The position numbers were made by a program, and so were the translations under genes. Below the pieces are notes generated by a model. It was given only the letters and a program-made list of their open reading frames with translations, did no database searches and was not told the DNA's origin. DNA of 64,000 nucleotides from Nanobdellota archaeon (lineage in GTDB: Archaea > Nanobdellota > Nanobdellia > Pacearchaeales > GW2011-AR1), in NCBI GenBank assembly GCA_049324275.1, contig JBMOLG010000001.1, forward strand, positions 47,606-111,605. Direction: 5' to 3'. The number at the start of each line of letters is the position of its first letter. Within the stretch, counting starts at the first letter, position 1. This document shows positions 45,792 through 58,997 of the stretch, piece by piece.

Positions 45792-45912
45792 TGAGCCTGC
45801 GCAGATTCGAACTGCGGACCCCTGCCTGTCTGAAATCAATTGATTTCGGACACCCAAAATCTTGATTTTGATGTTATCAGAGCAGTGCTCTACCTGGCTG
45901 AGCTACAGGCTC
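45792..45912 (-). tRNA. tRNA-Ile (anticodon GAU) with a ~47-nt intron at the canonical 37/38 position
   Basis: Reverse complement folds as acceptor GAGCCTG/CAGGCTC, D-arm GCTC...GAGC, anticodon stem CTGCT with loop CTGATA|intron|A, 3' stem GGCAG, T-arm CGCAG-TTCGAAT-CTGCG. The intron contains the 16-nt palindrome GAAATCAATTGATTTC. Confidence 0.75.
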
Positions 45913-48162: not shown

Positions 48163-49863
48163 TTAGCTTTTCAACTTCTTAAAAATAAAATTAAAATAAT
48201 CTGTTTTAAAAGAATTTGCCATTTTCTCGACAATTAACTCGGGAGTTGAATGCGCCAACCTTCCGATTACAGGGTTATGATCTACAATCAATTCAAAATT
48301 ATCATCAAGCCCTTTGGCTTCTATGCCGTCAATCCTTGCCCCTTTTGGAAGTGACTTTTGAATTTCAAATCCCAAGTGTGTTGCTATAACTAAAAAGCAA
48401 TCTTTAGAAATGAAATACTCTGCTGTAGCAGAAATGATATTGCCTGCAACGCCTGGCTCTGTTACTGATTCAATTTCATCTGCTAAAATCAAAGTTTTTC
48501 CTTCAGGATTAATTTGCGACATTTGAGTCAAGAGGGTTTCAAAGGCGCCCTTGCTCATTGAGCCCTTGTTTTTTGCAAAATAATAGACCTGATTAAAAAT
48601 AGGAAGATTCAAATTTCCTGAAACAGGAAGGCCTATTTGAGACAATGTAACTAATTGAATAATATGTTCCAACAGAGTTGTTTTTCCTCCTGAATTTGCT
48701 CCAGTTAAAATAGAGCACTTATGCTCATTATTCAGATTAAAACAAACTGGTTGGGCGTTTTCCAAAAAAATATTTTTTGAATTTGTAAACTTAAGTTCTT
48801 CAGCATGTTTAGGATAATTTTCAAAGCTTGAGATAAAGTTAGAGATTCCGGATATAAAATCAAATATTAAAAGTTCGGCTGAAATTTTTTTTAATTTTTC
48901 AGGAGCGGATTTGAGGCTTTTAGAATTCTGCTTTAAGATTGCGGATTTATCTGTGAATTCCGACGTATTTTGGCGTTTTATAAAATTGTCAAGCTCTCGT
49001 TCATCAACCTCAAGAGGAATTGAGATGCTGAACAAATGAGATGGAATTTTTGTTTTGGAAATCTCAGAATTGATGATTTCTTTTAATTCACAGGGAATTC
49101 CTTTTTTTAAAATTGAAAGCAAGGATTCACCAGAAACAGTCATTGTTTTTATTTGTGAAAAGATTTTTTCGTTGATATTTTCCAGCTCTTCAAAGATTTT
49201 TTCTTTGCTTAAGATTTCTGTTTTAGACCTGACAAGATTCAGGATTGACAAAAGTTCTTTGATTGTTTCCTGCTCAAAATTGTTATTCATTAAGACTTCA
49301 AAATTCTCCTGCCAAGATGAAAGCAAGATAAGATAACGCTCTAAATAAGCATCTTCTAGGTTATTTACAAAAATTGCTTGCGGGAGGCTTTCTAAGAAAT
49401 TTGAAAATTGATCGCAATCAACAACATAAACTAAATCGTATCGCTCAAGATAGGCAATATCATTTTCAGTTGCAATGAACTTGACTGTGCATCCAAATTC
49501 CTGCAGTTTTGAAAGATTCTTTTCATTTTCCGTAACAATAACTGCATCATAATTTGGCTTCCATGAAGATTTCGGCACAGAAATTTTTTTTAAGAATTCA
49601 TTGTCAATATTTTTAGCGATAGACTTAAAAAAATCCTGGCGGTTTTTTATCTCTTCAAAATCTGGCGTGAAAGGGAAGCAGGTTAACAAATTAGAAGTGT
49701 CTGCAAAGTAGAAGTTAGAGTTGATTGCACTGATTACTTTGTTATAAACAGATTTTGCATCCTTTGTTTTGAATATTGTTTCTTTTGCATTCACGCTGGT
49801 TTTTGTTTTATTGAACGGGGAGAGATTATTTTTTTCTATATAATCAAGCATCTTTTTTTCCAT
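48163..49863 (-). CDS. MutS-like ABC ATPase (MutS domain V; archaeal MutS2-like)
   Basis: Walker A GANSGGKTT, Walker B LILADEIESVTEP, and a MutS-type signature region upstream. Confidence 0.65.
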   Translation of the reverse strand: MEKKMLDYIEKNNLSPFNKTKTSVNAKETIFKTKDAKSVYNKVISAINSNFYFADTSNLLTCFPFTPDFEEIKNRQDFFKSIAKNIDNEFLKKISVPKSSWKPNYDAVIVTENEKNLSKLQEFGCTVKFIATENDIAYLERYDLVYVVDCDQFSNFLESLPQAIFVNNLEDAYLERYLILLSSWQENFEVLMNNNFEQETIKELLSILNLVRSKTEILSKEKIFEELENINEKIFSQIKTMTVSGESLLSILKKGIPCELKEIINSEISKTKIPSHLFSISIPLEVDERELDNFIKRQNTSEFTDKSAILKQNSKSLKSAPEKLKKISAELLIFDFISGISNFISSFENYPKHAEELKFTNSKNIFLENAQPVCFNLNNEHKCSILTGANSGGKTTLLEHIIQLVTLSQIGLPVSGNLNLPIFNQVYYFAKNKGSMSKGAFETLLTQMSQINPEGKTLILADEIESVTEPGVAGNIISATAEYFISKDCFLVIATHLGFEIQKSLPKGARIDGIEAKGLDDNFELIVDHNPVIGRLAHSTPELIVEKMANSFKTDYFNFIFKKLKS

Positions 49864-50693: not shown

Positions 50694-52241
50694 ATGCCAA
50701 CATTAAACTGGATTGGAAAAGAAGCAGTCATAAATCATGATAAAGAGGTTCCATTCAAACTTCTCAAAAAGGTTAAAGCATATTCTGTGGGAAATAATTC
50801 TCAAAATTTAATTATCAAAGGAGATAATTTAGAAGGGCTTAAAGCACTAATGCCTTATTATATTGGAAAAGTAAAATGTGTCTATATAGATCCGCCATAT
50901 AACACAGGAAATGAAAATTGGGTTTACAATGATAAAGTAAATTCTCCTAAAATAAAAAAATGGCTCGGAAAAGTTGTCGGAGGAGAAGCTCAAGATTTAT
51001 GCAGACATGACAAATGGCTTTGCATGATGTATCCTCGACTTAAGCTTTTGAGAGATTTGTTGAGTGATGATGGCGTGATCTTTGTTAGTATTGATGATAA
51101 TGAGAATCATAATCTCAGATTTTTATTAAATGAAATTTTTGGCGAAGTGAATTATATTCAAGAGATAGTCTGGCATAGTAAGTACACAGTATCAAATGAT
51201 GCAAAATTCTTTTCAAGACAACATGAATATGTTTTATGTTATGCTAAAGATATTCAAAAAGTATCCGCTGTTTTCTCTGTTCCAAGAACTGATGAGGCAA
51301 ATAATAGATATTCAAATCCAGATAATGATCCACGAGGCCCATGGAAAGCCACCCCACTGCATGCAAAAAGTGGAAAAGAAGAAAATAATTTTGAATATGT
51401 TTTTAAAAATGGAATAAAATAGAAACCTCCTAAGGGACGCTATCATCGCTTTAATAAAGAAAGTTTAGAAAGATTAGATAAAGAAAATCGATTATGGTTT
51501 GGAAAAGATAAAAAAGCAATGCCTTCCGTAAAAACTTTTCTATCAGAAGTTTCCGAAAAAATGAAATCTGGAAGCATCCTCCCATTTAATTTAGTAGGAC
51601 ATACTCATAAAGCAAATGAGCAACTTGCAAATTTAATGGACAAAGGAACATTTGATAATCCAAAATCAGTAGATTTAATTAAAATTTTAAGTTCAATGGT
51701 AACTTCCACTTCCGACATAATTCTCGACTCATTCGCAGGTTCGGGAACAACGGGACATGCGGTTTTAGACTTGAACAAAGAAGATGGGGGAAACAGAAAA
51801 TTTATTTTGATTGAGATGGAAGATGATATTGCTAAAAATATTACAACTGAACGAATCAAAAGGGCAATAGAAAAATATGATTACAAAGACGGATTTGAAT
51901 ATTGTGAATTAGACAAGCCTCTATTCGATGAGAACGGGCAGATAGAGGAAACTTGCGAGTTTAATCAGTTTGCAACTTATATTTATTTTACCGAAACCCA
52001 AACAAATATAGACAAGAACAAAATAGACAAAAACTTCATCGGAGAATTTGGAGAAACAGAATATTATCTTATCTATAAAGAAAAAATGAAAAATGTTTTA
52101 GATAAGAAGTTTTTATCTAAGTTAAAAAAGACAAAAAATAAAAAAGTCATTTATGCTGACTTTTGTATGATTGATGAAGATACATTAAAAATTTCTAACA
52201 TTCAATTTAAACAGATTCCTTATGAGGTGAAGGTTTATTGA
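50694..52241 (+). pseudogene. mod: Type III-like N6/N4 DNA methyltransferase (Mod) interrupted by a single in-frame TAG at 51420-51422
   Basis: ORFs 50694..51422 and 51519..52241 are in the same frame. The sequence reads through as ...FKNGIK*KPPKGRYHRFNKESLERLDKENRLWFGKDKKAMP.... Motif IV VYIDPPYNTG precedes motif I FAGSGTTGHAV (beta-class order), with the LNWIGKE start typical of this family. Confidence 0.75.
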
Positions 52242-52715
52242 ATGATAAAAAATAATTACATAAAACTTTTTGAAAAATTATCTGAACAAGAACCAAATTC
52301 AATAATCCTTATTGAAAAATTTGAGGATTTAGGCTTCTTTTTAACAGATTTTGAATCAATGCATGAAGAGAAATTTATATTTTTGCAAAAGATTAGAGAA
52401 AAAAATAAAGGGGGTAATTGGATAGAAAAATTTTATATTAAATTAGCCCCAAGAGGGTTCTCTTCTTTAGAAGAATTTAATAAAAATGAACAGCAAGAGA
52501 AATTTAATCATAAGACTCTTAAGGCAACAATAATAATTACAATTGCAACAGCTTTAAATGTTTTAGTAACTCTTTTTATATTTCTATTGAATTTGGAAAA
52601 ATCAAATTGGGCAAAACCTGCATCCCTTATACTAATTGGAATTTTTATTAGTTTTCTAACAGGAATATTAATTAAAGAAATTTGGTATTTTATATTTTTC
52701 AAAGAAAATGATTAA
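52242..52715 (+). CDS. small membrane protein encoded between mod and res
   Basis: 157 aa: soluble N-terminal part plus two C-terminal TM helices (IIITIATALNVLVTLFIFLL, LILIGIFISFLTGILI). Its start abuts the mod stop. Confidence 0.45.
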   Translation: MIKNNYIKLFEKLSEQEPNSIILIEKFEDLGFFLTDFESMHEEKFIFLQKIREKNKGGNWIEKFYIKLAPRGFSSLEEFNKNEQQEKFNHKTLKATIIITIATALNVLVTLFIFLLNLEKSNWAKPASLILIGIFISFLTGILIKEIWYFIFFKEND

Positions 52716-52768: not shown

Positions 52769-55039
52769 ATGGTAGAACTAAAAAAATATCAGCGAAAATC
52801 AATAGACATATTAAAAGATTATCTTAAGGAATTGGAGAAAAATGGAAGCAAGAGGGCGTTTATGTATATTACTGAAACGCCGTATAAATCTGAATTTTTT
52901 AATGAGGTTCCTTTTGTTTGCATAAAAATACCTACAGGAGGGGGAAAAACCTTTGTTGGTTGTCATTCTGTTGTTGAGATTATGTCTTCTATCTTAAAAC
53001 ATAAAATGGATAGAGGTATTGTTATGTGGTTTGTCCCATCAGAAGCAATAAAATCACAAACCCTAAAAAAATTCAAAGACCGAAACGATTGGCACAGAAA
53101 AGTTTTAGACGAAGCATTTGACAACAATATAAGAATTTTCTCAAACGAAGAAGCATTAAGAATAAGAAAAGAAGATGTTGAAGATAATATCTGTATAATA
53201 ATTTCAAGTTTAGAAGCATTTAGAAAAGAAAAAGCAATTCAAAATAAATACAAAGTTTATCAAGAAAATGGAGCACTATTAAGCCATTTTGAAAATTTAG
53301 AAGAAAAAGATTTTTTAGAAAAGGACGAACATAATACAATAATAAATTCTCTTGCAAATGTCATAAAATTATCAAATCCTTTAATTGTAATAGACGAAGG
53401 GCATAAAACAAAAACAAAACTTTCTATTGAATTTATGAGAGACTTGAACCCAAGTTTTATTATTGAGTACACAGCAACGCCAAGACCAGAAAGCAATATT
53501 TTAGTTGAGATTCACTCTTCTGAACTAAAAGGAGAACAAATGGTTAAGCTCCCGATTGTTCTTGAAAGTACAGCTCAATGGCAAAATTCAATTTTAAGAG
53601 GAGTTTTGAAAAGAGAAGAGCTAGAAAAAGAATCAAAAAAGAACAAATCTGAATATATAAGACCAATAGCACTTTTACAAGCAGAACAAGAAAAAGAATC
53701 AGATAATAAAATTACTGTCCAAAAGATCAAAGATTTTTTGATAAAAGAGAGAAAAATTCCAGAAGAAGAAATTGCAATTAAAACTTCAAGCATTAATGAA
53801 TTAGAAGGAATTAATCTTTTTAGCCAACAATGTAAAATAAGATATATTATAACTGTTAATGCTCTTGCAGAGGGGTGGGATTGTTCTTTTGCTTATGTTT
53901 TAATTTCTGTCGCAAATATTGGCTCAAAAATAGCAGTTGAACAGATTATTGGAAGAATTGTAAGAATGACTAATGCTCGAAGAAAAGAAAACGAAGCATT
54001 AAACAGGAGTTATATTTTTGCATCAGCAAAGAATTTTCAGGAAGCAAGCGAACAGATAATTTTGGGATTAGAGAGCAACGGATTTAGCAAGCTAGATTTA
54101 ATCAATGCAACAAACGAAGATCAAACACATGAATTAGATGTTGAAAAAGCTGTAAAAGAAAATTTATTTGTTCCCATGCTCGCTTTTGAAGATGAAAAAT
54201 TATCTTTTGAAGATTTAATCGGAGAAGAGTTTGAACTTGCAAAACAAAATGCAGAATTTGATTTTACTATTAATTATGATAATGATGGAAGAGCATTAAT
54301 TGATATTCAAGGCCAAGACAAATGGGTAAAAAGTGCTCAACAAATCTTAAAGATAACTTACAAAGATAAAAATTTTTCAAAAGAGGAACTTATCCAATGG
54401 TTAGACAAAAAACTAAGATTTACTATTTTAGAAAAATCAGACAAAATTAAATTTATACAAAAAGTTATAGAATATCAATTAAAGAAAAAATCTCTTTCTG
54501 AACTTTCAGTAAACAGATATGTTTTAGTTACAAAATTAAGTGAGATAATAAATCATATATTGGAAGATTATGCTAAAAAGAGATTTGATGAATTCATTAA
54601 AAATAAAAAAATAAGTGTGAAAGATTTTGAAAAATTCCCGGAAAAAATAACACTTTTCCAAGAGATATTTCGGGGATTTAATAAAAATTATTATTCAAAA
54701 ATAGACAGGTTGAATAAAGAAGAATTAAAATTTGTTGAAAGATTAGATTTAGAAACATTACCAAATATTAAATTTTGGATAAGAAATAGAGAAAAGAAAG
54801 ATCCTTTTTTCATACAAGGCTGGAAAAAAAATAAATTTTATCCAGATTTTATTGCTGTAACTAAGAATAATAATATTATTGTTTTAGAGTGGAAAGGAGA
54901 AGATAGAAAAAGCAATGAAGATACACAATATAAGGAAGAAATAGGAAAAATATGGGAATCAATAGATAAAAATTTGCATTTTTTCTTAGTCCATAATGGA
55001 AATATTGAAGAAATATTATCTAAACTAAAAAATTTATAA
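52769..55039 (+). CDS. res: Type III restriction enzyme Res subunit (SF2 helicase plus C-terminal PD-(D/E)xK nuclease)
   Basis: Walker A KIPTGGGKTF, DEGH box LIVIDEGHKT, motif VI QIIGRIVR, and a C-terminal nuclease-like YPDFIAV...VLEWKGE. Confidence 0.7.
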   Translation: MVELKKYQRKSIDILKDYLKELEKNGSKRAFMYITETPYKSEFFNEVPFVCIKIPTGGGKTFVGCHSVVEIMSSILKHKMDRGIVMWFVPSEAIKSQTLKKFKDRNDWHRKVLDEAFDNNIRIFSNEEALRIRKEDVEDNICIIISSLEAFRKEKAIQNKYKVYQENGALLSHFENLEEKDFLEKDEHNTIINSLANVIKLSNPLIVIDEGHKTKTKLSIEFMRDLNPSFIIEYTATPRPESNILVEIHSSELKGEQMVKLPIVLESTAQWQNSILRGVLKREELEKESKKNKSEYIRPIALLQAEQEKESDNKITVQKIKDFLIKERKIPEEEIAIKTSSINELEGINLFSQQCKIRYIITVNALAEGWDCSFAYVLISVANIGSKIAVEQIIGRIVRMTNARRKENEALNRSYIFASAKNFQEASEQIILGLESNGFSKLDLINATNEDQTHELDVEKAVKENLFVPMLAFEDEKLSFEDLIGEEFELAKQNAEFDFTINYDNDGRALIDIQGQDKWVKSAQQILKITYKDKNFSKEELIQWLDKKLRFTILEKSDKIKFIQKVIEYQLKKKSLSELSVNRYVLVTKLSEIINHILEDYAKKRFDEFIKNKKISVKDFEKFPEKITLFQEIFRGFNKNYYSKIDRLNKEELKFVERLDLETLPNIKFWIRNREKKDPFFIQGWKKNKFYPDFIAVTKNNNIIVLEWKGEDRKSNEDTQYKEEIGKIWESIDKNLHFFLVHNGNIEEILSKLKNL

Positions 55040-55124
55040 ATTAGTCTACCGAACTATCCTTCTTACATCCAGTTAACCTGAAAAACCCAACAAAACTTTT
55101 AAACATCATACGCAAATCAAATAG

Positions 55125-56912
55125 ATGGCAGAGATAATTATCAATGAATCATTTTCAGACGATGATTTTCTTTTTGACAGGGTTGAAAATGGGGAGTTTG
55201 AATCACCTGAAATCCTCAAGCTGAAAGTTGATGCAGAGGAGATTGTGAAGGACAAAAAAATCAACGAGCTTATTTCTTATGACATAATAAAGAAAAATCT
55301 AGAGTATAAGCTTCCCTACCAGACTAATGGGGCTTTAAGAATTTTGAGGGACTTTAATGGCTCTGCTCTTCTTGCTGATGAGGTCGGGCTCGGCAAAACA
55401 ATAACAGCAGGGTTGGTATTGAAAGAGAGTATTGTGAGGGGATTTGTAACTAAGGCTTTGATTTTAACTCCTCCGTCGCTTGTGGACCAATGGGTTTCTG
55501 AATTAAAAGAAAAGTTTGAGCTTGATTTTAAGATTATTGAGAATCCATCAGACTGGAAAAAAGCCAATTTTGCCATAGCTTCGATAGATAGAGTAAAGGC
55601 TTATGATAAAGAATTAAGAAGATTCCGCCATGAAGAGGCCCATAATATTTCATGGGATATCTTGATTGTCGATGAGGCTCATAAGTTGAAAGAGAAAAAC
55701 ACAATTCGGTGGAAGTTTATTGACAGCATTCCAAAAAAGAGATTTTTAATTTTAACAGCAACGCCATTCCAAAATGACCTGATTGAATTATACAATCTGC
55801 TTCATTTGCTGAAAAAAGGGCATCTCGGGACAATAAAAGAGTTCAGAAAAAAATTTTTGCATAAGGGAAACAAAAGATATCCGTTAAATCCAAAGGAATT
55901 GAAAGCAAAGCTCGATGAAGTGATGATAAGAAGAAGGAGATATGAAACAGGAATTAATTATAAAAAAAGAATACCAAGAATTGAAGTTGTCGAATTAACT
56001 GATGAAGAAAAAGTCATCTATGACAATACATGCGAGCTTCTGAAGTCAAATTATTTTTCAGCAGGCGGAAGCGAGATTAACGGGCATTTGATAATTTATG
56101 CTATTTTACCGAAGATAACAAGCTCATCAAAGTCAGCAATGGAATCGCTGAACAAGATTGCTTCTGATGAGAAGTACCATAAGGCAACAAGAGAACTGGC
56201 AGAAGGCATTTTAGAAGATTATAAAAAGCTGAAAAGAGATTCTAAGATTGAAAAATTAGTTGAAATTGTTGAAAGGATCTTAAAAGAGGATGCTGAATCA
56301 AAAATATTAATTTATACAAAACATCCTACCACTCTTGAGTATATAGCAGAAAAATTAAAGCCATACAATATTAAGGTTGTAGAATTTACAGGGGGGCTTA
56401 ACAGAGAGGAGAAAACTGAAAAGATAAAAGAGTTCAAAGAGAATGCACAAATAATGATTAGCACTGAGACGGGTTCAGAGGGGCTTAATTTTCAGTTTTG
56501 CAACAATCTCATAAATTATGACCTGCCATGGAATCCCATGTCTGTTGAGCAGAGGATAGGAAGGCTTGATAGAATCGGGCAAAAGAAAGACATGAACATA
56601 TTCAGCCTCGCAACAAAAGGCACAATGGAAGAGCATGTGGTAGACCTGATAATAAACAAGATGTGTTGTGTAGGCTTAGTAATTGGAGAGCTTCCAATTA
56701 TCTTGTTTAACCTCGGGCTTGACAGCGAAGGAGTTACAGGAAGGAGCAGAATAGAAGAGCATTTGATGAATTCGTTTATAGATTCAAAGAACAATTTAGA
56801 CAAATTTGCAATGGAAATTGAAAAAATAGGGAAGCTTATACAAAGAGGAATAGACGATTATAAAGAAATAAATGAACAAAACTCACAATTACTAGATGAA
56901 AAGCGAAATTGA
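55125..56912 (+). CDS. SNF2-family helicase
   Basis: All SNF2 hallmark blocks: DEVGLGKT (I), LIVDEAHKLK (II), LTATPFQNDLIELYNLLHLL (III), QRIGRLDRIGQKKDMNIFSL (VI). Confidence 0.9.
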   Translation: MAEIIINESFSDDDFLFDRVENGEFESPEILKLKVDAEEIVKDKKINELISYDIIKKNLEYKLPYQTNGALRILRDFNGSALLADEVGLGKTITAGLVLKESIVRGFVTKALILTPPSLVDQWVSELKEKFELDFKIIENPSDWKKANFAIASIDRVKAYDKELRRFRHEEAHNISWDILIVDEAHKLKEKNTIRWKFIDSIPKKRFLILTATPFQNDLIELYNLLHLLKKGHLGTIKEFRKKFLHKGNKRYPLNPKELKAKLDEVMIRRRRYETGINYKKRIPRIEVVELTDEEKVIYDNTCELLKSNYFSAGGSEINGHLIIYAILPKITSSSKSAMESLNKIASDEKYHKATRELAEGILEDYKKLKRDSKIEKLVEIVERILKEDAESKILIYTKHPTTLEYIAEKLKPYNIKVVEFTGGLNREEKTEKIKEFKENAQIMISTETGSEGLNFQFCNNLINYDLPWNPMSVEQRIGRLDRIGQKKDMNIFSLATKGTMEEHVVDLIINKMCCVGLVIGELPIILFNLGLDSEGVTGRSRIEEHLMNSFIDSKNNLDKFAMEIEKIGKLIQRGIDDYKEINEQNSQLLDEKRN

Positions 56913-58290
56913 ACAAATACAGGAATTTACAATTAATTTCTTCAAAAATCTGAAATGCAAAATTTCAGACGGAGAAATCATAATTATAGAAAATGTTCCA
57001 AAAGATTTTGAAGAATTCTTCAAAAAAAAATCACCTTATCAACTTGCCTTTTCAGAAGAAAGCAAAACTGAAGAATCAATTTTAGTTGCAAAAGGAAGCA
57101 GTTTATTGAATGCAATCCGGTCATTTTTAGAAAAAAGCGGAAGCACTACATTATTGAAAATAGATTTTGATGTTGACTATAAAGATTTTGTGAAAAAATA
57201 TTGTTTTAAAAATGCAGAGATTTCAAATGTTCAGGTGAAGAAAAAAAATAATTTCTTTTCAAGGTTTACTTTTTTGACTACATTCCAATATCTTAATGAT
57301 AAAGAACAAATCTTAAATGAACTTTATGTGCACAATGGAGAAATTGTAGAGGGAGATTTGCATGGGTATGAGGTGGTTGAGGGAAGAAAAGAAGATGTTT
57401 CTGTTGAAAAAATTGAAGAAGATTGCAATATTGCGAAGCAAAATCTTAAGCTGAGAATTGAAAAGAAAACAGAAGAGGTAAAGAATTTTTTGAATCAAAG
57501 ACTGGAAAAAGAAATTTCCAGAATTCAAGGGCATTATATTAATCATTCAGAAGAATTAAAGGCAGGATTAATTGAAGAGCTCAATAAACTGAAGCAAGCC
57601 GGGGAAAAAATTTCAAATGAAGATGAAAAATACAAGCTTAATAATAAGATAAATGAAGTGCTGAAAAAAATTGATTCATTGGAGCGAGGAGAAACATTTG
57701 AAAAAATTGAAAAAGAAAAAAGTTCGGCAATCAACGGAGAAACACAAAAGCACAGCCTCAATATCCATAATAAACTTATTAACACAACAATAATATATTA
57801 TCCGGTGTATCATTTTGAAATTCTTTTGAAAAATAAGTTTGCAAACAGAGTTGTTACAATAATTCATAATCCATTGACCCAAGAAACAAATTCATTGTTT
57901 TGCGAGTCATGCAAATTACAAACTGATGATTTATATTTATGCTCCTCAGGCCATATATCGTGCATCAAATGCATGAATCGATGCATGAGCTGCAGTGGCG
58001 AGTTTTGCGAGCCATGCCTTAAAAAAAGGTGTGAATATTGCGGGGCTAAATTATGCAATAATTGCGGGGAAAGATGCTTTAGCTGCGGAAAAACTTTTTG
58101 CCAGAATCACATGAAAAATGATTCAATTACAGGAAGAAGAAGTTGCATTAACTGCCTTAAGCAATGCCCTAAGTGCTTTGAATATTCCGCTCCAAGAAAT
58201 TTCAAGAAAGATAAGAATGGCATGCAGATATGTCCAAGATGCTTTTCAAAAGAGTTTGGAAGAAATGTTGCAAGAAGAATTTTCGAATAA
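56896..58290 (+). CDS. hypothetical protein with coiled-coil middle and a C-terminal cluster of about 10 CxxC pairs (multi-zinc-ribbon), translationally coupled to the SNF2 helicase
   Basis: 464 aa. Start overlaps the SNF2 stop by 17 nt. The C-terminus reads CESCKLQ...CSSGHISCIKCMNRCMSCSGEFCEPCLKKRCEYCGAKLCNNCGERCFSCGKTFCQNH...CINCLKQCPKCF...CPRCF. Confidence 0.5.
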   Translation: MKSEIEQIQEFTINFFKNLKCKISDGEIIIIENVPKDFEEFFKKKSPYQLAFSEESKTEESILVAKGSSLLNAIRSFLEKSGSTTLLKIDFDVDYKDFVKKYCFKNAEISNVQVKKKNNFFSRFTFLTTFQYLNDKEQILNELYVHNGEIVEGDLHGYEVVEGRKEDVSVEKIEEDCNIAKQNLKLRIEKKTEEVKNFLNQRLEKEISRIQGHYINHSEELKAGLIEELNKLKQAGEKISNEDEKYKLNNKINEVLKKIDSLERGETFEKIEKEKSSAINGETQKHSLNIHNKLINTTIIYYPVYHFEILLKNKFANRVVTIIHNPLTQETNSLFCESCKLQTDDLYLCSSGHISCIKCMNRCMSCSGEFCEPCLKKRCEYCGAKLCNNCGERCFSCGKTFCQNHMKNDSITGRRSCINCLKQCPKCFEYSAPRNFKKDKNGMQICPRCFSKEFGRNVARRIFE

Positions 58291-58352: not shown

Positions 58353-58997
58353 ATGAAATATAAATATTTAGCATCATCTGAGGCGAGAAATGAAATAAGA
58401 GCTATCTCAAATAATTTAGCCGAATATCTGCATGAAAATCAAATCAAAAGCATTATTTTTTTAGACCGGTCGGCCAGGCTCGGCTATATCGGACTTAGAT
58501 ACGCATGGAGCGACTTGTACCCTAATGAAAAATGCCCCGATGTTTATTTTACAAATCCTGAAGTGTATAAGAGAAATAGAAAGATTGCCATAAAAGAATT
58601 TGATGGGAAATACAAAAGATTAGCTAAGAATAAAGAATCTAAGATCATGTTATTTGACACTTATATATGTACGGGGGACACAATTTATTCTGTAAAGAAA
58701 GTTATGAATAAAACAGGATATAAAAATATTGAACTAGGAATATCAAAACCTAAAAGCCCAAACATTTTAGCAGTATTAGCGAGAAAAATTAAATTTCAAG
58801 ATAAAACAAATTTTCATGCTTTAAATTACATCCCCAATTATATGTGCTGTCCATTTGGAAAAGATTCAATGGTTGAAAAATCAAAAAATAAAATATTTTC
58901 ATCAAGAACAAAAAGCATGATTAATAGAAAAAAATCTTTAGAACTCAGGGCGGAAATAAAAGATATTTTTGAAACATGGTTAAGTTTGAAAGAATAA
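58353..58997 (+). CDS. hypothetical protein with phosphoribosyltransferase-like motif
   Basis: IMLFDTYICTGDTIYSV resembles the PRTase PRPP-binding motif (hhhhDDhhxTGxT). Confidence 0.35.
   Translation: MKYKYLASSEARNEIRAISNNLAEYLHENQIKSIIFLDRSARLGYIGLRYAWSDLYPNEKCPDVYFTNPEVYKRNRKIAIKEFDGKYKRLAKNKESKIMLFDTYICTGDTIYSVKKVMNKTGYKNIELGISKPKSPNILAVLARKIKFQDKTNFHALNYIPNYMCCPFGKDSMVEKSKNKIFSSRTKSMINRKKSLELRAEIKDIFETWLSLKE

Follow-up and report, generated by a model that had tools for sequence, protein, structure and literature searches.

A 64,000-nucleotide stretch of a Nanobdellota archaeon genome (contig JBMOLG010000001.1, positions 47,606 to 111,605; the window) contains two overlapping genes, which encode an SNF2-family ATPase and a partner protein whose C terminus is densely packed with CxxC motifs. 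We propose that the pair encodes a two-subunit SNF2 translocase of the YqhH/YqhG type, most likely serving genome maintenance, and we put the probability of this reading at roughly 0.6. That the pair is this module, and that it belongs to the core genes of its carriers, we hold to be highly probable; an adaptor role for the partner is likely, and any specific substrate, be it RNA polymerase (RNAP), a lesion, or a chromatin protein, is individually doubtful at best. The pair is an archaeal (DPANN), zinc-array-bearing variant of the known but uncharacterized YqhH-YqhG module and not categorically new; the module itself is ancient, being common to Bacillota, other bacteria, and several archaeal lineages. 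The pair and its junction were located as follows.

55125..56912, + strand: gene for the SNF2-family ATPase, 595 amino acids (aa), from the table of open reading frames (ORFs) and Pfam
56896..58290, + strand: gene for the partner, 464 aa, from the ORF table
56896..56912, + strand: overlap of the partner start with the SNF2 stop, 17 nucleotides (nt), read from the sequence
55097..55103, + strand: TATA-like box TTTTAAA, read from the sequence

The two overlapping ORFs, with a C-terminal CxxC array in the 464-aa partner, are exactly as the first-pass annotation of this DNA had described them, and they belong to a run of genes on one strand. At their junction, the partner ATG stands 17 nt ahead of the SNF2 TGA (…gATGAAAAGCGAAATTGA), and because the genes overlap we infer that they are translationally coupled. 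Junction overlaps of 4 to 26 nt recur at about 18 of the 30 homologous loci in which the two genes are adjacent, the rest having gaps of 21 to 119 nt, and the Bacillus yqhH and yqhG genes overlap by 35 nt. The TATA-like box is centered about 25 nt before the SNF2 ATG, which suggests that the pair may have its own leaderless or nearly leaderless archaeal promoter, separate from that of the restriction-modification (R-M) genes upstream.

We took a census of partner relatives by scanning one genome per GTDB species, using tblastn with the window proteins together with ORF clustering, and recovered 51 loci. An identical protein is on record for a Nanoarchaeota metagenome-assembled genome, and all close homologs came from Pacearchaeota, Woesearchaeota, or Nanoarchaeota (DPANN) assemblies. 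Among the 47 DPANN loci with enough upstream DNA to be assessed, the window included, an SNF2 gene lay directly upstream on the same strand in 30, and in a further 11, where unrelated genes were inserted, the SNF2 gene was again on the same strand at a distance of 0.4 to 8 kb upstream. The two genes are thus paired at 41 of 47 loci, which contradicts the possibility, named in the first-pass annotation as one that would refute its reading, that the partner's homologs are never adjacent to SNF2 genes elsewhere. SNF2 orthologs at 40 DPANN loci were 65 to 73% identical to that of the window. In the reverse lookup, each of three SNF2 orthologs on long contigs was followed by an overlapping partner-family gene (397, 521, and 464 aa). 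Together with the census, these lookups indicate that the association is reciprocal, and the differing partner lengths indicate that the zinc array varies in length.

The same arrangement extends well beyond the DPANN archaea. A YqhH-type SNF2 gene stood directly upstream in six of six assessable distant relatives, which derive from a spore-former (L057), archaea (L058 and L065), and other bacteria (L059, L060, and L063), and the pairing was likewise present at Bacillales loci from Brevibacillus (L061) and Bacillus (L062). The window partner conforms to the positional criterion that we used for the YqhG family, lying immediately downstream of a YqhH-type SNF2 gene. These loci show that the pairing is conserved across domains of life, and the presence of partner homologs beside the same SNF2 subfamily almost everywhere bears out the earlier view of the two proteins as a functional pair.

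The SNF2 protein consists of two RecA-like lobes (PF00176, SNF2-rel_dom, E = 4e-31; PF00271, Helicase_C, E = 1e-22) and a C-terminal tail of about 75 aa, with no RapA-like N- or C-terminal domains. It agrees with our definition of a YqhH-type protein, that is, collinearity over the full length, a size of about 560 to 600 aa, and SNF2_N and Helicase_C as the only domains. Its identity to the Brevibacillus SNF2 protein encoded beside a YqhG family gene was 36% over 571 aa (E = 8e-116), and that to YqhH of Bacillus sp. N5-665 was 37% over nearly the full length (E = 1e-104); the partner-linked SNF2 proteins are 34 to 48% identical to one another over their full length. In both of these Bacillales genomes, the gene for a 560- to 567-aa SNF2 protein lies directly 5' of yqhG and beside gcvT, as in B. 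subtilis. These alignments demonstrate, at the level of sequence, that the window SNF2 is orthologous to the YqhH-type SNF2 proteins. Its best match of known structure was SsoRad54 (E = 2.5e-36), with RapA at about 1e-33, and it scored far under the curated cutoffs for RapA, DrmD, DpdE, and ZorD.

The kinship of the partner was harder to establish. Scans of Pfam, NCBIfam, and PADLOC returned nothing meaningful for the window protein: Pfam gave only two families at E ≤ 1 (Apolipoprotein and EMC3_TMCO1), and PADLOC gave one weak coiled-coil match (PDC-S06, E = 4e-4, 16.8 bits). When each of 42 homologs was scanned against Pfam, the matches were confined to coiled-coil or Cys-bias noise (Fzo_mitofusin, Apolipoprotein, and Siva). 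The N-terminal profile of the long relatives described below had no credible match among PDB sequences. We also dropped a lead to the DrmD C terminus, a weak NCBIfam match of one relative (P0399, E = 6e-5) that PADLOC did not reproduce.

An exhaustive profile search of 1.8 billion representatives nonetheless recovered 1246 proteins at E ≤ 1e-3. Relatives beyond the DPANN family of about 460 aa are 550 to 1050 aa long, from sources that include bacteria (one named Armatimonadota), a spore-forming Firmicute, Nanohaloarchaeota, and an acidic haloarchaeon-like protein. These long relatives share the N-domain, hairpin, and β-hairpin of the window protein and have much longer arrays of C-x2-C-x4-C-x2-[C/H/D] units. 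An alignment of the DPANN partner family (A1, 42 members) matched an alignment of the N-terminal parts of the long relatives (A2) with a probability of 99.9% in hhalign (E = 1.7e-34, 296 columns). A word-indexed search with A2 yielded only 10 proteins, and bona fide YqhG proteins came from tblastn searches of plasmid and chromid records. Of the long relatives from the profile search, 3 of 10 matched PF11079 ("Bacterial protein YqhG of unknown function"), P0342 with 36 bits (E = 4e-9) against a gathering score of 25. A Brevibacillus protein annotated as "YqhG family protein" matched the same model at E = 1e-73 (248 bits), and A2 aligned to it with a probability of 98.5% (E = 3e-15). Through these intermediates, the profile comparisons show the N-domain, helical hairpin, and β-hairpin of the partner to be homologous to YqhG (PF11079), and we place the partner in the YqhG superfamily but outside the Pfam family in its present definition. 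The first-pass annotation had recognized no relative of the partner; its N-terminal two-thirds now have one by transitive profile homology, beside an SNF2 protein of YqhH type.

An AlphaFold2 model of the partner, built on the 42-homolog alignment (predicted local distance difference test [pLDDT] 88.9), confirmed the three-part anatomy proposed earlier and, together with the alignments, delimits the following parts.

56896..57390, + strand: YqhG-like N-terminal α/β domain, residues 1-165 (AlphaFold2, alignment A1, hhalign)
57391..57756, + strand: antiparallel helical hairpin (coiled coil), residues 166-287 (AlphaFold2)
57757..57885, + strand: long β-hairpin, residues 288-330, with strands at 288-325 in the model (alignment, AlphaFold2)
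57886..58242, + strand: zinc array, residues 331-449 (invariant columns, array-only model, Foldseek, profiles)
58243..58290, + strand: basic C-terminal helix and stop codon, residues 450-464, isoelectric point (pI) 10.7 (AlphaFold2, helix 447-463)

The N-domain carries the conserved motifs FxxxFF, GKKSPYxLxF, KGSxLL, TTLLKIDF, and FSRFTFxTTFxYLNExEQ in alignment A1. It is mildly acidic, as is the charged helical hairpin (pI 5.8), whose helices span residues 173-187, 189-237, 242-264, and 266-285 in the model and whose Foldseek matches were hairpin-type analogues only (MacA, HlyD, and CT398). The most conserved motif of the partner outside its Cys residues, HSLNIxNKLINTTIIYYP, lies in the β-hairpin; it is kept in the long relatives (ENHRLRV…), and its counterpart is the β-strand motif with which the 271-aa Bacillus YqhG ends (…EPRITVQIINGGLFY). 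After the β-hairpin, the model shows a chain of short zinc-knuckle elements. For the full-length model, Foldseek found no PDB structure below E = 0.5, the matches being coiled-coil analogues, CT398, and TFIIB ribbons. In seven of the long relatives (P0339, P0345, P0353, P0360, P0372, P0375, and P0380), the array is followed by a small conserved domain at the C terminus (…Y/W…I/V-V-x-D…G-K/R-x-I…R), which is missing from the DPANN form and from Bacillus YqhG.

The density of CxxC motifs in the partner is far above chance: among the window ORFs that reach 150 aa, Cys accounts for 1.2% of residues, and none besides the partner exceeds three CxxC motifs. Residues 336-449 (114 aa) hold 10 CxxC pairs, one C-x3-H (349-353), and one C-x2-H (402-405), for a total of 12 ligand pairs and a predicted array of about six Zn sites. 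Across the 42 homologs (35 to 56% identity), 18 Cys residues and H353 never vary, and conservation is at least 90% for the rest of the ligand Cys residues (C349, C424, C427, C446, and C449). The array is basic, with a pI of 8.7 and a net charge of +9. In one long relative (P0366, 885 aa, on a 1.24-Mb contig), it includes 11 perfect tandem units of 30 aa, CNSCKKQFCQTDRTRCAECDLEFCRNDAGE, with Asp at the fourth-ligand position; these copies show that the repeat expanded recently.

We compared the array with known zinc-binding families. Its first four pairs, C-x2-C-x9-C-x3-H-x2-C-x2-C-x3-C-x2-C, are spaced nearly as in a RING finger of the C3HC4 type, down to a C-x-x-GH-x-x-C-x-x-C core, and throughout the superfamily no part of the array is better conserved than this RING-like module. 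It fits the RING consensus (C-x2-C-x9-39-C-x1-3-H-x2-3-C-x2-C-x4-48-C-x2-C) except in its last loop, which has 3 residues where RING requires at least 4, and Pfam RING-type models match only 3 of the 42 members, all at E > 0.02. The last four pairs, C-x2-H-x11-C-x2-C-x3-C-x2-C-x18-C-x2-C, are roughly LIM-like; they only approximate the LIM spacing (C-x2-C-x16-23-H-x2-C-x2-C-x2-C-x16-21-C-x2-[CHD]), which we required alongside a significant profile match, and Pfam gave no LIM match. Against PDB chains, the array profile found FYVE (E = 1e-3), RING (BRE1, RNF125, and TRIM21, E = 0.008 to 0.03), and LIM (E = 0.026) domains. A model of the array alone (pLDDT 92.4) had tandem LIM structures as its top Foldseek matches (PINCH1 LIM4-5 and LMO2; E = 3.6e-3 to 8e-3, probability about 0.8 to 0.9, template modeling score 0.26 to 0.30) and no RING at E < 0.1. 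The SWIM and DUF1998/MrfA models put forward in the first-pass annotation had no Pfam match to the window protein at E ≤ 1 and are not among the 25 families that most members match. The array weakly resembles tandem LIM, RING, and FYVE domains and is a member of none of these, nor of SWIM or DUF1998, and we conclude that it is probably an extended rod built from a chain of generic zinc sites of the treble-clef type. Neither Pfam, the profiles, nor Foldseek assigned it to a known family with an unrelated function, an outcome that would have undone the earlier interpretation.

Both genes behave as core genes. Their flanks elsewhere in DPANN include genes for prolyl-tRNA synthetase (ProRS), leucyl-tRNA synthetase, deoxyhypusine synthase, GatB, phosphoenolpyruvate synthase, and the thermosome. 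Across 38 genomes, mean pairwise identity was 67% for the SNF2 protein and 38% for the partner, and the identities of the two were correlated (r = 0.89). In the 12 genomes with ProRS on the same locus, mean identity was 74% for the SNF2 protein, 59% for ProRS, and 47% for the partner, and both genes tracked ProRS divergence (Spearman 0.73). Given that the SNF2 protein is better conserved than ProRS, that both genes track ProRS, and that the flanks are housekeeping genes, the pair shows the pattern that marks core genes inherited vertically and strongly constrained, unlike a mobile defense system. Constraint on the motor above that on a tRNA synthetase, in genome-reduced DPANN archaea, argues for an important housekeeping role. 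On two of three long DPANN contigs, a DEAD-box helicase gene (432 to 446 aa; L052, 6697-8037, and L054, 6375-7673) lies 2 to 3.5 kb 5' of the SNF2 gene, which may be conserved synteny.

What the pair does can be proposed only in outline. The YqhG-like N-domain, hairpin, and β-hairpin would dock on the minimal SNF2 motor and control it; since every version of the partner has these parts and shares no others, they probably bind and regulate the motor. Targeting, for which the motor itself has no domain, would come from the partner: the basic zinc rod, of lineage-variable length, would recruit the motor to a substrate, the candidates being a DNA-bound protein and the nucleic acids DNA and RNA. 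Since the rod is positively charged, it may bind nucleic acid. Tandem LIM domains bind extended peptides, and we offer them as a model for how the array might grasp a DNA-bound protein. The motor would then translocate on duplex DNA, displacing or remodeling the obstacle, so that the role of the pair would be to clear damage-stalled or roadblock complexes. ATPase and unwinding activities are reported for YqhH of B. thuringiensis, the knockout of which is sensitive to ultraviolet (UV) light (PMC10054049); the DNA-lesion sensor suggested in the first-pass annotation would be compatible with that sensitivity. We favor genome maintenance because of this UV sensitivity, the one phenotype on record, and the core-gene behavior of the pair. 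In B. subtilis, the gene order is yqhH-yqhG-sinI-sinR (PMC6123443), and YqhH has been described, under the name HepA, as a poorly characterized Swi2/Snf2 translocase (PMC7385302). A literature search found no paper that treats YqhG and SNF2 together, and nothing describing the module for SNF2 in a DPANN or archaeal zinc-ribbon context.

Several observations weigh against a two-subunit translocase devoted to genome maintenance. No SNF2 gene was visible beside the partner at 6 of the 47 assessable DPANN loci, and none of the best 150 of the 1246 relatives was an SNF2-partner fusion. The link to YqhG rests on intermediates because the direct comparison of A1 with two true YqhG proteins, collinear as it was, was not significant (hhalign E = 0.0036, probability 9%); neither the window protein nor any of the 42 A1 members matched PF11079 at E ≤ 1, the gathering threshold being 25 bits. 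Bacillus YqhG lacks the zinc array entirely, and the array therefore cannot be essential to the core mechanism. Some neighborhoods have a flavor of defense. At two nanohaloarchaeal loci (L058, 4253-8649, and L065, 184-6608), the SNF2 gene, a gene for a 673- to 674-aa partner, and one for a 208-aa Mrr_cat protein follow one another without spacing. Two short relatives of 290 to 394 aa, which have a degenerate zinc module and are paired with SNF2 proteins of 773 to 775 aa, stand beside type I-C-like cas genes (L064, 221-6369) and among transposase, terminase, and ParB genes (L059, 525-8015). Finally, experiments in B. subtilis identified YwqA, rather than YqhH, as the RapA homolog that associates with RNAP (PMC3797733, PMC12448304), and an RNAP-recycling role is for that reason unsupported by data.

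Such a role, although improbable, is the most probable of the alternatives. It holds that the pair is a RapA-like factor for recycling or removing RNAP that has been split in two, with the SNF2 protein as motor and the partner, whose zinc ribbons would dock on the archaeal RNAP, standing in for the RNAP-binding N- and C-terminal domains of RapA. The SNF2 protein counts RapA among its closest characterized relatives, and B. subtilis YqhH has been called HepA/RapA and placed in a group of translocases that interact with RNAP (PMC7385302). In local Foldseek matches, zinc ribbons of the TFIIB/Brf type reach probabilities of 0.90 to 0.98, and in nanohaloarchaeal locus L058 the pair follows rpoE-spt4-rps24e. 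These zinc-ribbon matches are generic, however, and the rpoE neighborhood was seen only once. The score against the RapA model (NCBIfam NF003426) is 197 bits, with a cutoff of 576; the alignment covers the ATPase core only, and the protein has 595 aa to the 968 of RapA. RapA_C was detected in just 2 of the 42 members, at E = 0.09.

A defense function is, to our judgment, slightly less probable still. In this explanation, the SNF2 protein and its zinc-finger partner sense foreign DNA, possibly together with a type III R-M system, on the model of the SNF2 components of DISARM (DrmD), BREX (BrxHI), and Zorya (ZorD). The window invites it: the pair is directly 3' of type III R-M genes (Mod, 50694-52241; Res, 52769-55039), just upstream of which stands a gene for a MutS2/KamC-like ATPase with a MutS_V P-loop domain (48163-49863, − strand), and the best PADLOC matches of the SNF2 protein are BrxHI and DrmD. 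The Mod gene, however, is one reading frame split by an in-frame TAG at 51420-51422, Res being intact, and both halves match a single PADLOC MTase_III model (positions 1-232 and 282-541). We rejected TAG recoding, since TAG is an ordinary stop that closes 5 of the 40 long frames of the window, and for the same reason the gene looks like a nonsense mutant or pseudogene. Matches to Res or Mod within ±10 kb were found by tblastn at 0 of 51 related loci, so that no recurrent linkage to type III R-M was seen. A MutS2/KamC-like ATPase gene is also found near the SNF2 gene in L026 (2092-3819) and L038 (7-660). In L026, a close relative, genes for a pyrimidine-dimer DNA glycosylase, TspO, and cyclophilin, and no R-M genes, fill the segment between it and the SNF2 gene, and because that segment holds other genes there, the R-M genes of the window are incidental cargo in a variable insertion spot. 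Their adjacency does not make the pair a defense island, however tempting that misreading may be.

The scores of the SNF2 protein fall far below the curated cutoffs for DrmD (217 versus 610) and ZorD (70 versus 1500), the generic SNF2 core alone being matched; the window neighbors, type III R-M genes and unannotated ORFs, include no drm, brx, or zor genes; and the partner belongs to no PADLOC family beyond the weak coiled-coil match. Vertical inheritance among housekeeping genes, with an SNF2 protein that outconserves ProRS, is atypical of defense, and these traits, together with the unconserved R-M neighbor, disfavor in this DPANN clade the foreign-DNA sensor that had been suggested for the array. 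In other branches, Mrr, cas, and mobile-element neighbors make defense-type uses of the module plausible; the nanohaloarchaeal gene string, with its restriction-endonuclease-fold Mrr_cat protein, may be a nuclease-armed, defense-like version, and one of those loci (L065) has a further gene, for an Mrr_cat and NA-iREase1 protein, upstream.

Three other features of the window were recorded. A 157-aa ORF between Mod and Res (52242-52715), which starts at the Mod stop, has a hydrophobic C-terminal half and no family match. Just 3' of the partner, a 214-aa ORF (58353-58997) has a phosphoribosyl pyrophosphate-binding-like motif (IMLFDTYICTGDT) and a weak PADLOC phosphoribosyltransferase match; it is not kept beside the pair at other loci, and we rejected it as a third gene of the module, as it did not match the Mrr_cat gene that trails the pair in nanohaloarchaea. 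At 45792-45912 (− strand), Rfam reports a 121-nt tRNA that ARAGORN does not, probably an intron-containing archaeal tRNA.

A bolder version of the translocase proposal makes the pair an essential two-subunit DNA-protein remodeler of ultrasmall DPANN archaea, in which a chain of RING/LIM-like binuclear fingers grasps an extended protein segment; the segment could belong to RNAP, an archaeal chromatin protein, or a repair factor. We consider this unlikely. If it were true, YqhH-YqhG would be an unrecognized ancient class of prokaryotic SNF2 holoenzyme and could be an antecedent of those eukaryotic SNF2 enzymes (Rad5/HLTF and Rad16, for example) that have RING or zinc-finger modules embedded in them. 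Least probable is a split prokaryotic counterpart of the RING-bearing SNF2 enzymes themselves (Rad5/HLTF, Rad16, and SHPRH), in which the first zinc module of the partner would be a true RING recruiting a ubiquitin-like conjugation enzyme at damaged DNA: the near-C3HC4 spacing and conservation of that module, the RING matches in the PDB, and the UV-sensitive B. thuringiensis knockout speak for it, but those matches have marginal E values inflated by Cys bias, the last loop is too short, tandem LIM ranks first when the fold of the array alone is searched, Bacillus YqhG is devoid of any zinc module, and no gene for an E1 or E2 enzyme or a ubiquitin-like protein was present in the neighborhoods examined.

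In Bacillus, YqhH and YqhG have long ranked as "y-genes" for which functional data hardly exist. Here they appear as one module that bacteria and archaea share, and the partner in its widespread form bears a variable zinc-finger array that Pfam misses. The proposed translocase can be tested in tractable Bacillus, and the module, with just two proteins, is a simple system in which to study the targeting of a minimal SNF2 motor.

Among known systems, the likeness to LIM, RING, and FYVE domains concerns the array, which is likewise an extended chain of CxxC-based zinc sites. Its inter-pair spacings (x3 to x4) are much tighter than those of LIM, the number of units ranges from about 3 to more than 25 among the partner relatives, and no Pfam match is significant. 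DrmD, BrxHI, and ZorD share the generic SNF2 core with the window protein; ZorD is moreover fused to an Mrr nuclease, and some distant branches of the module adjoin Mrr nucleases. The DPANN pair differs from all three in being core-like, vertically inherited, and free of their system partner genes.

RapA (HepA) of E. coli is, as a prokaryotic SNF2 protein that acts on a DNA-bound protein complex, nearer to the function that we propose, and its SNF2 core is among the closest of those characterized. It is a single 968-aa chain with an N-terminal Tudor-like domain and C-terminal domains, whereas the window SNF2 has neither and the window partner shows no credible similarity to RapA_C. SsoRad54 of Sulfolobus (PDB 1Z63), an archaeal double-stranded DNA translocase, provides the best solved-structure match to the SNF2 core. 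To our knowledge, it has no YqhG-like partner, and its likeness to the window SNF2 is much lower than that of the YqhH-type proteins. SsoRad54 has been tied to RadA-mediated recombination (PMC2677860).

The closest counterpart by far is YqhH/YqhG of Bacillus. The SNF2 proteins belong to the same subfamily, with 36 to 37% identity over their full length, a size of 560 to 600 aa, and no accessory domains; the gene order is the same, often with an overlapping junction; and the partners share the N-domain, the helical region, and the terminal β-strand motif by transitive profile homology. To this common plan, the window protein, which is archaeal, adds a longer helical hairpin and an array of about 120 aa with some six predicted zinc sites.

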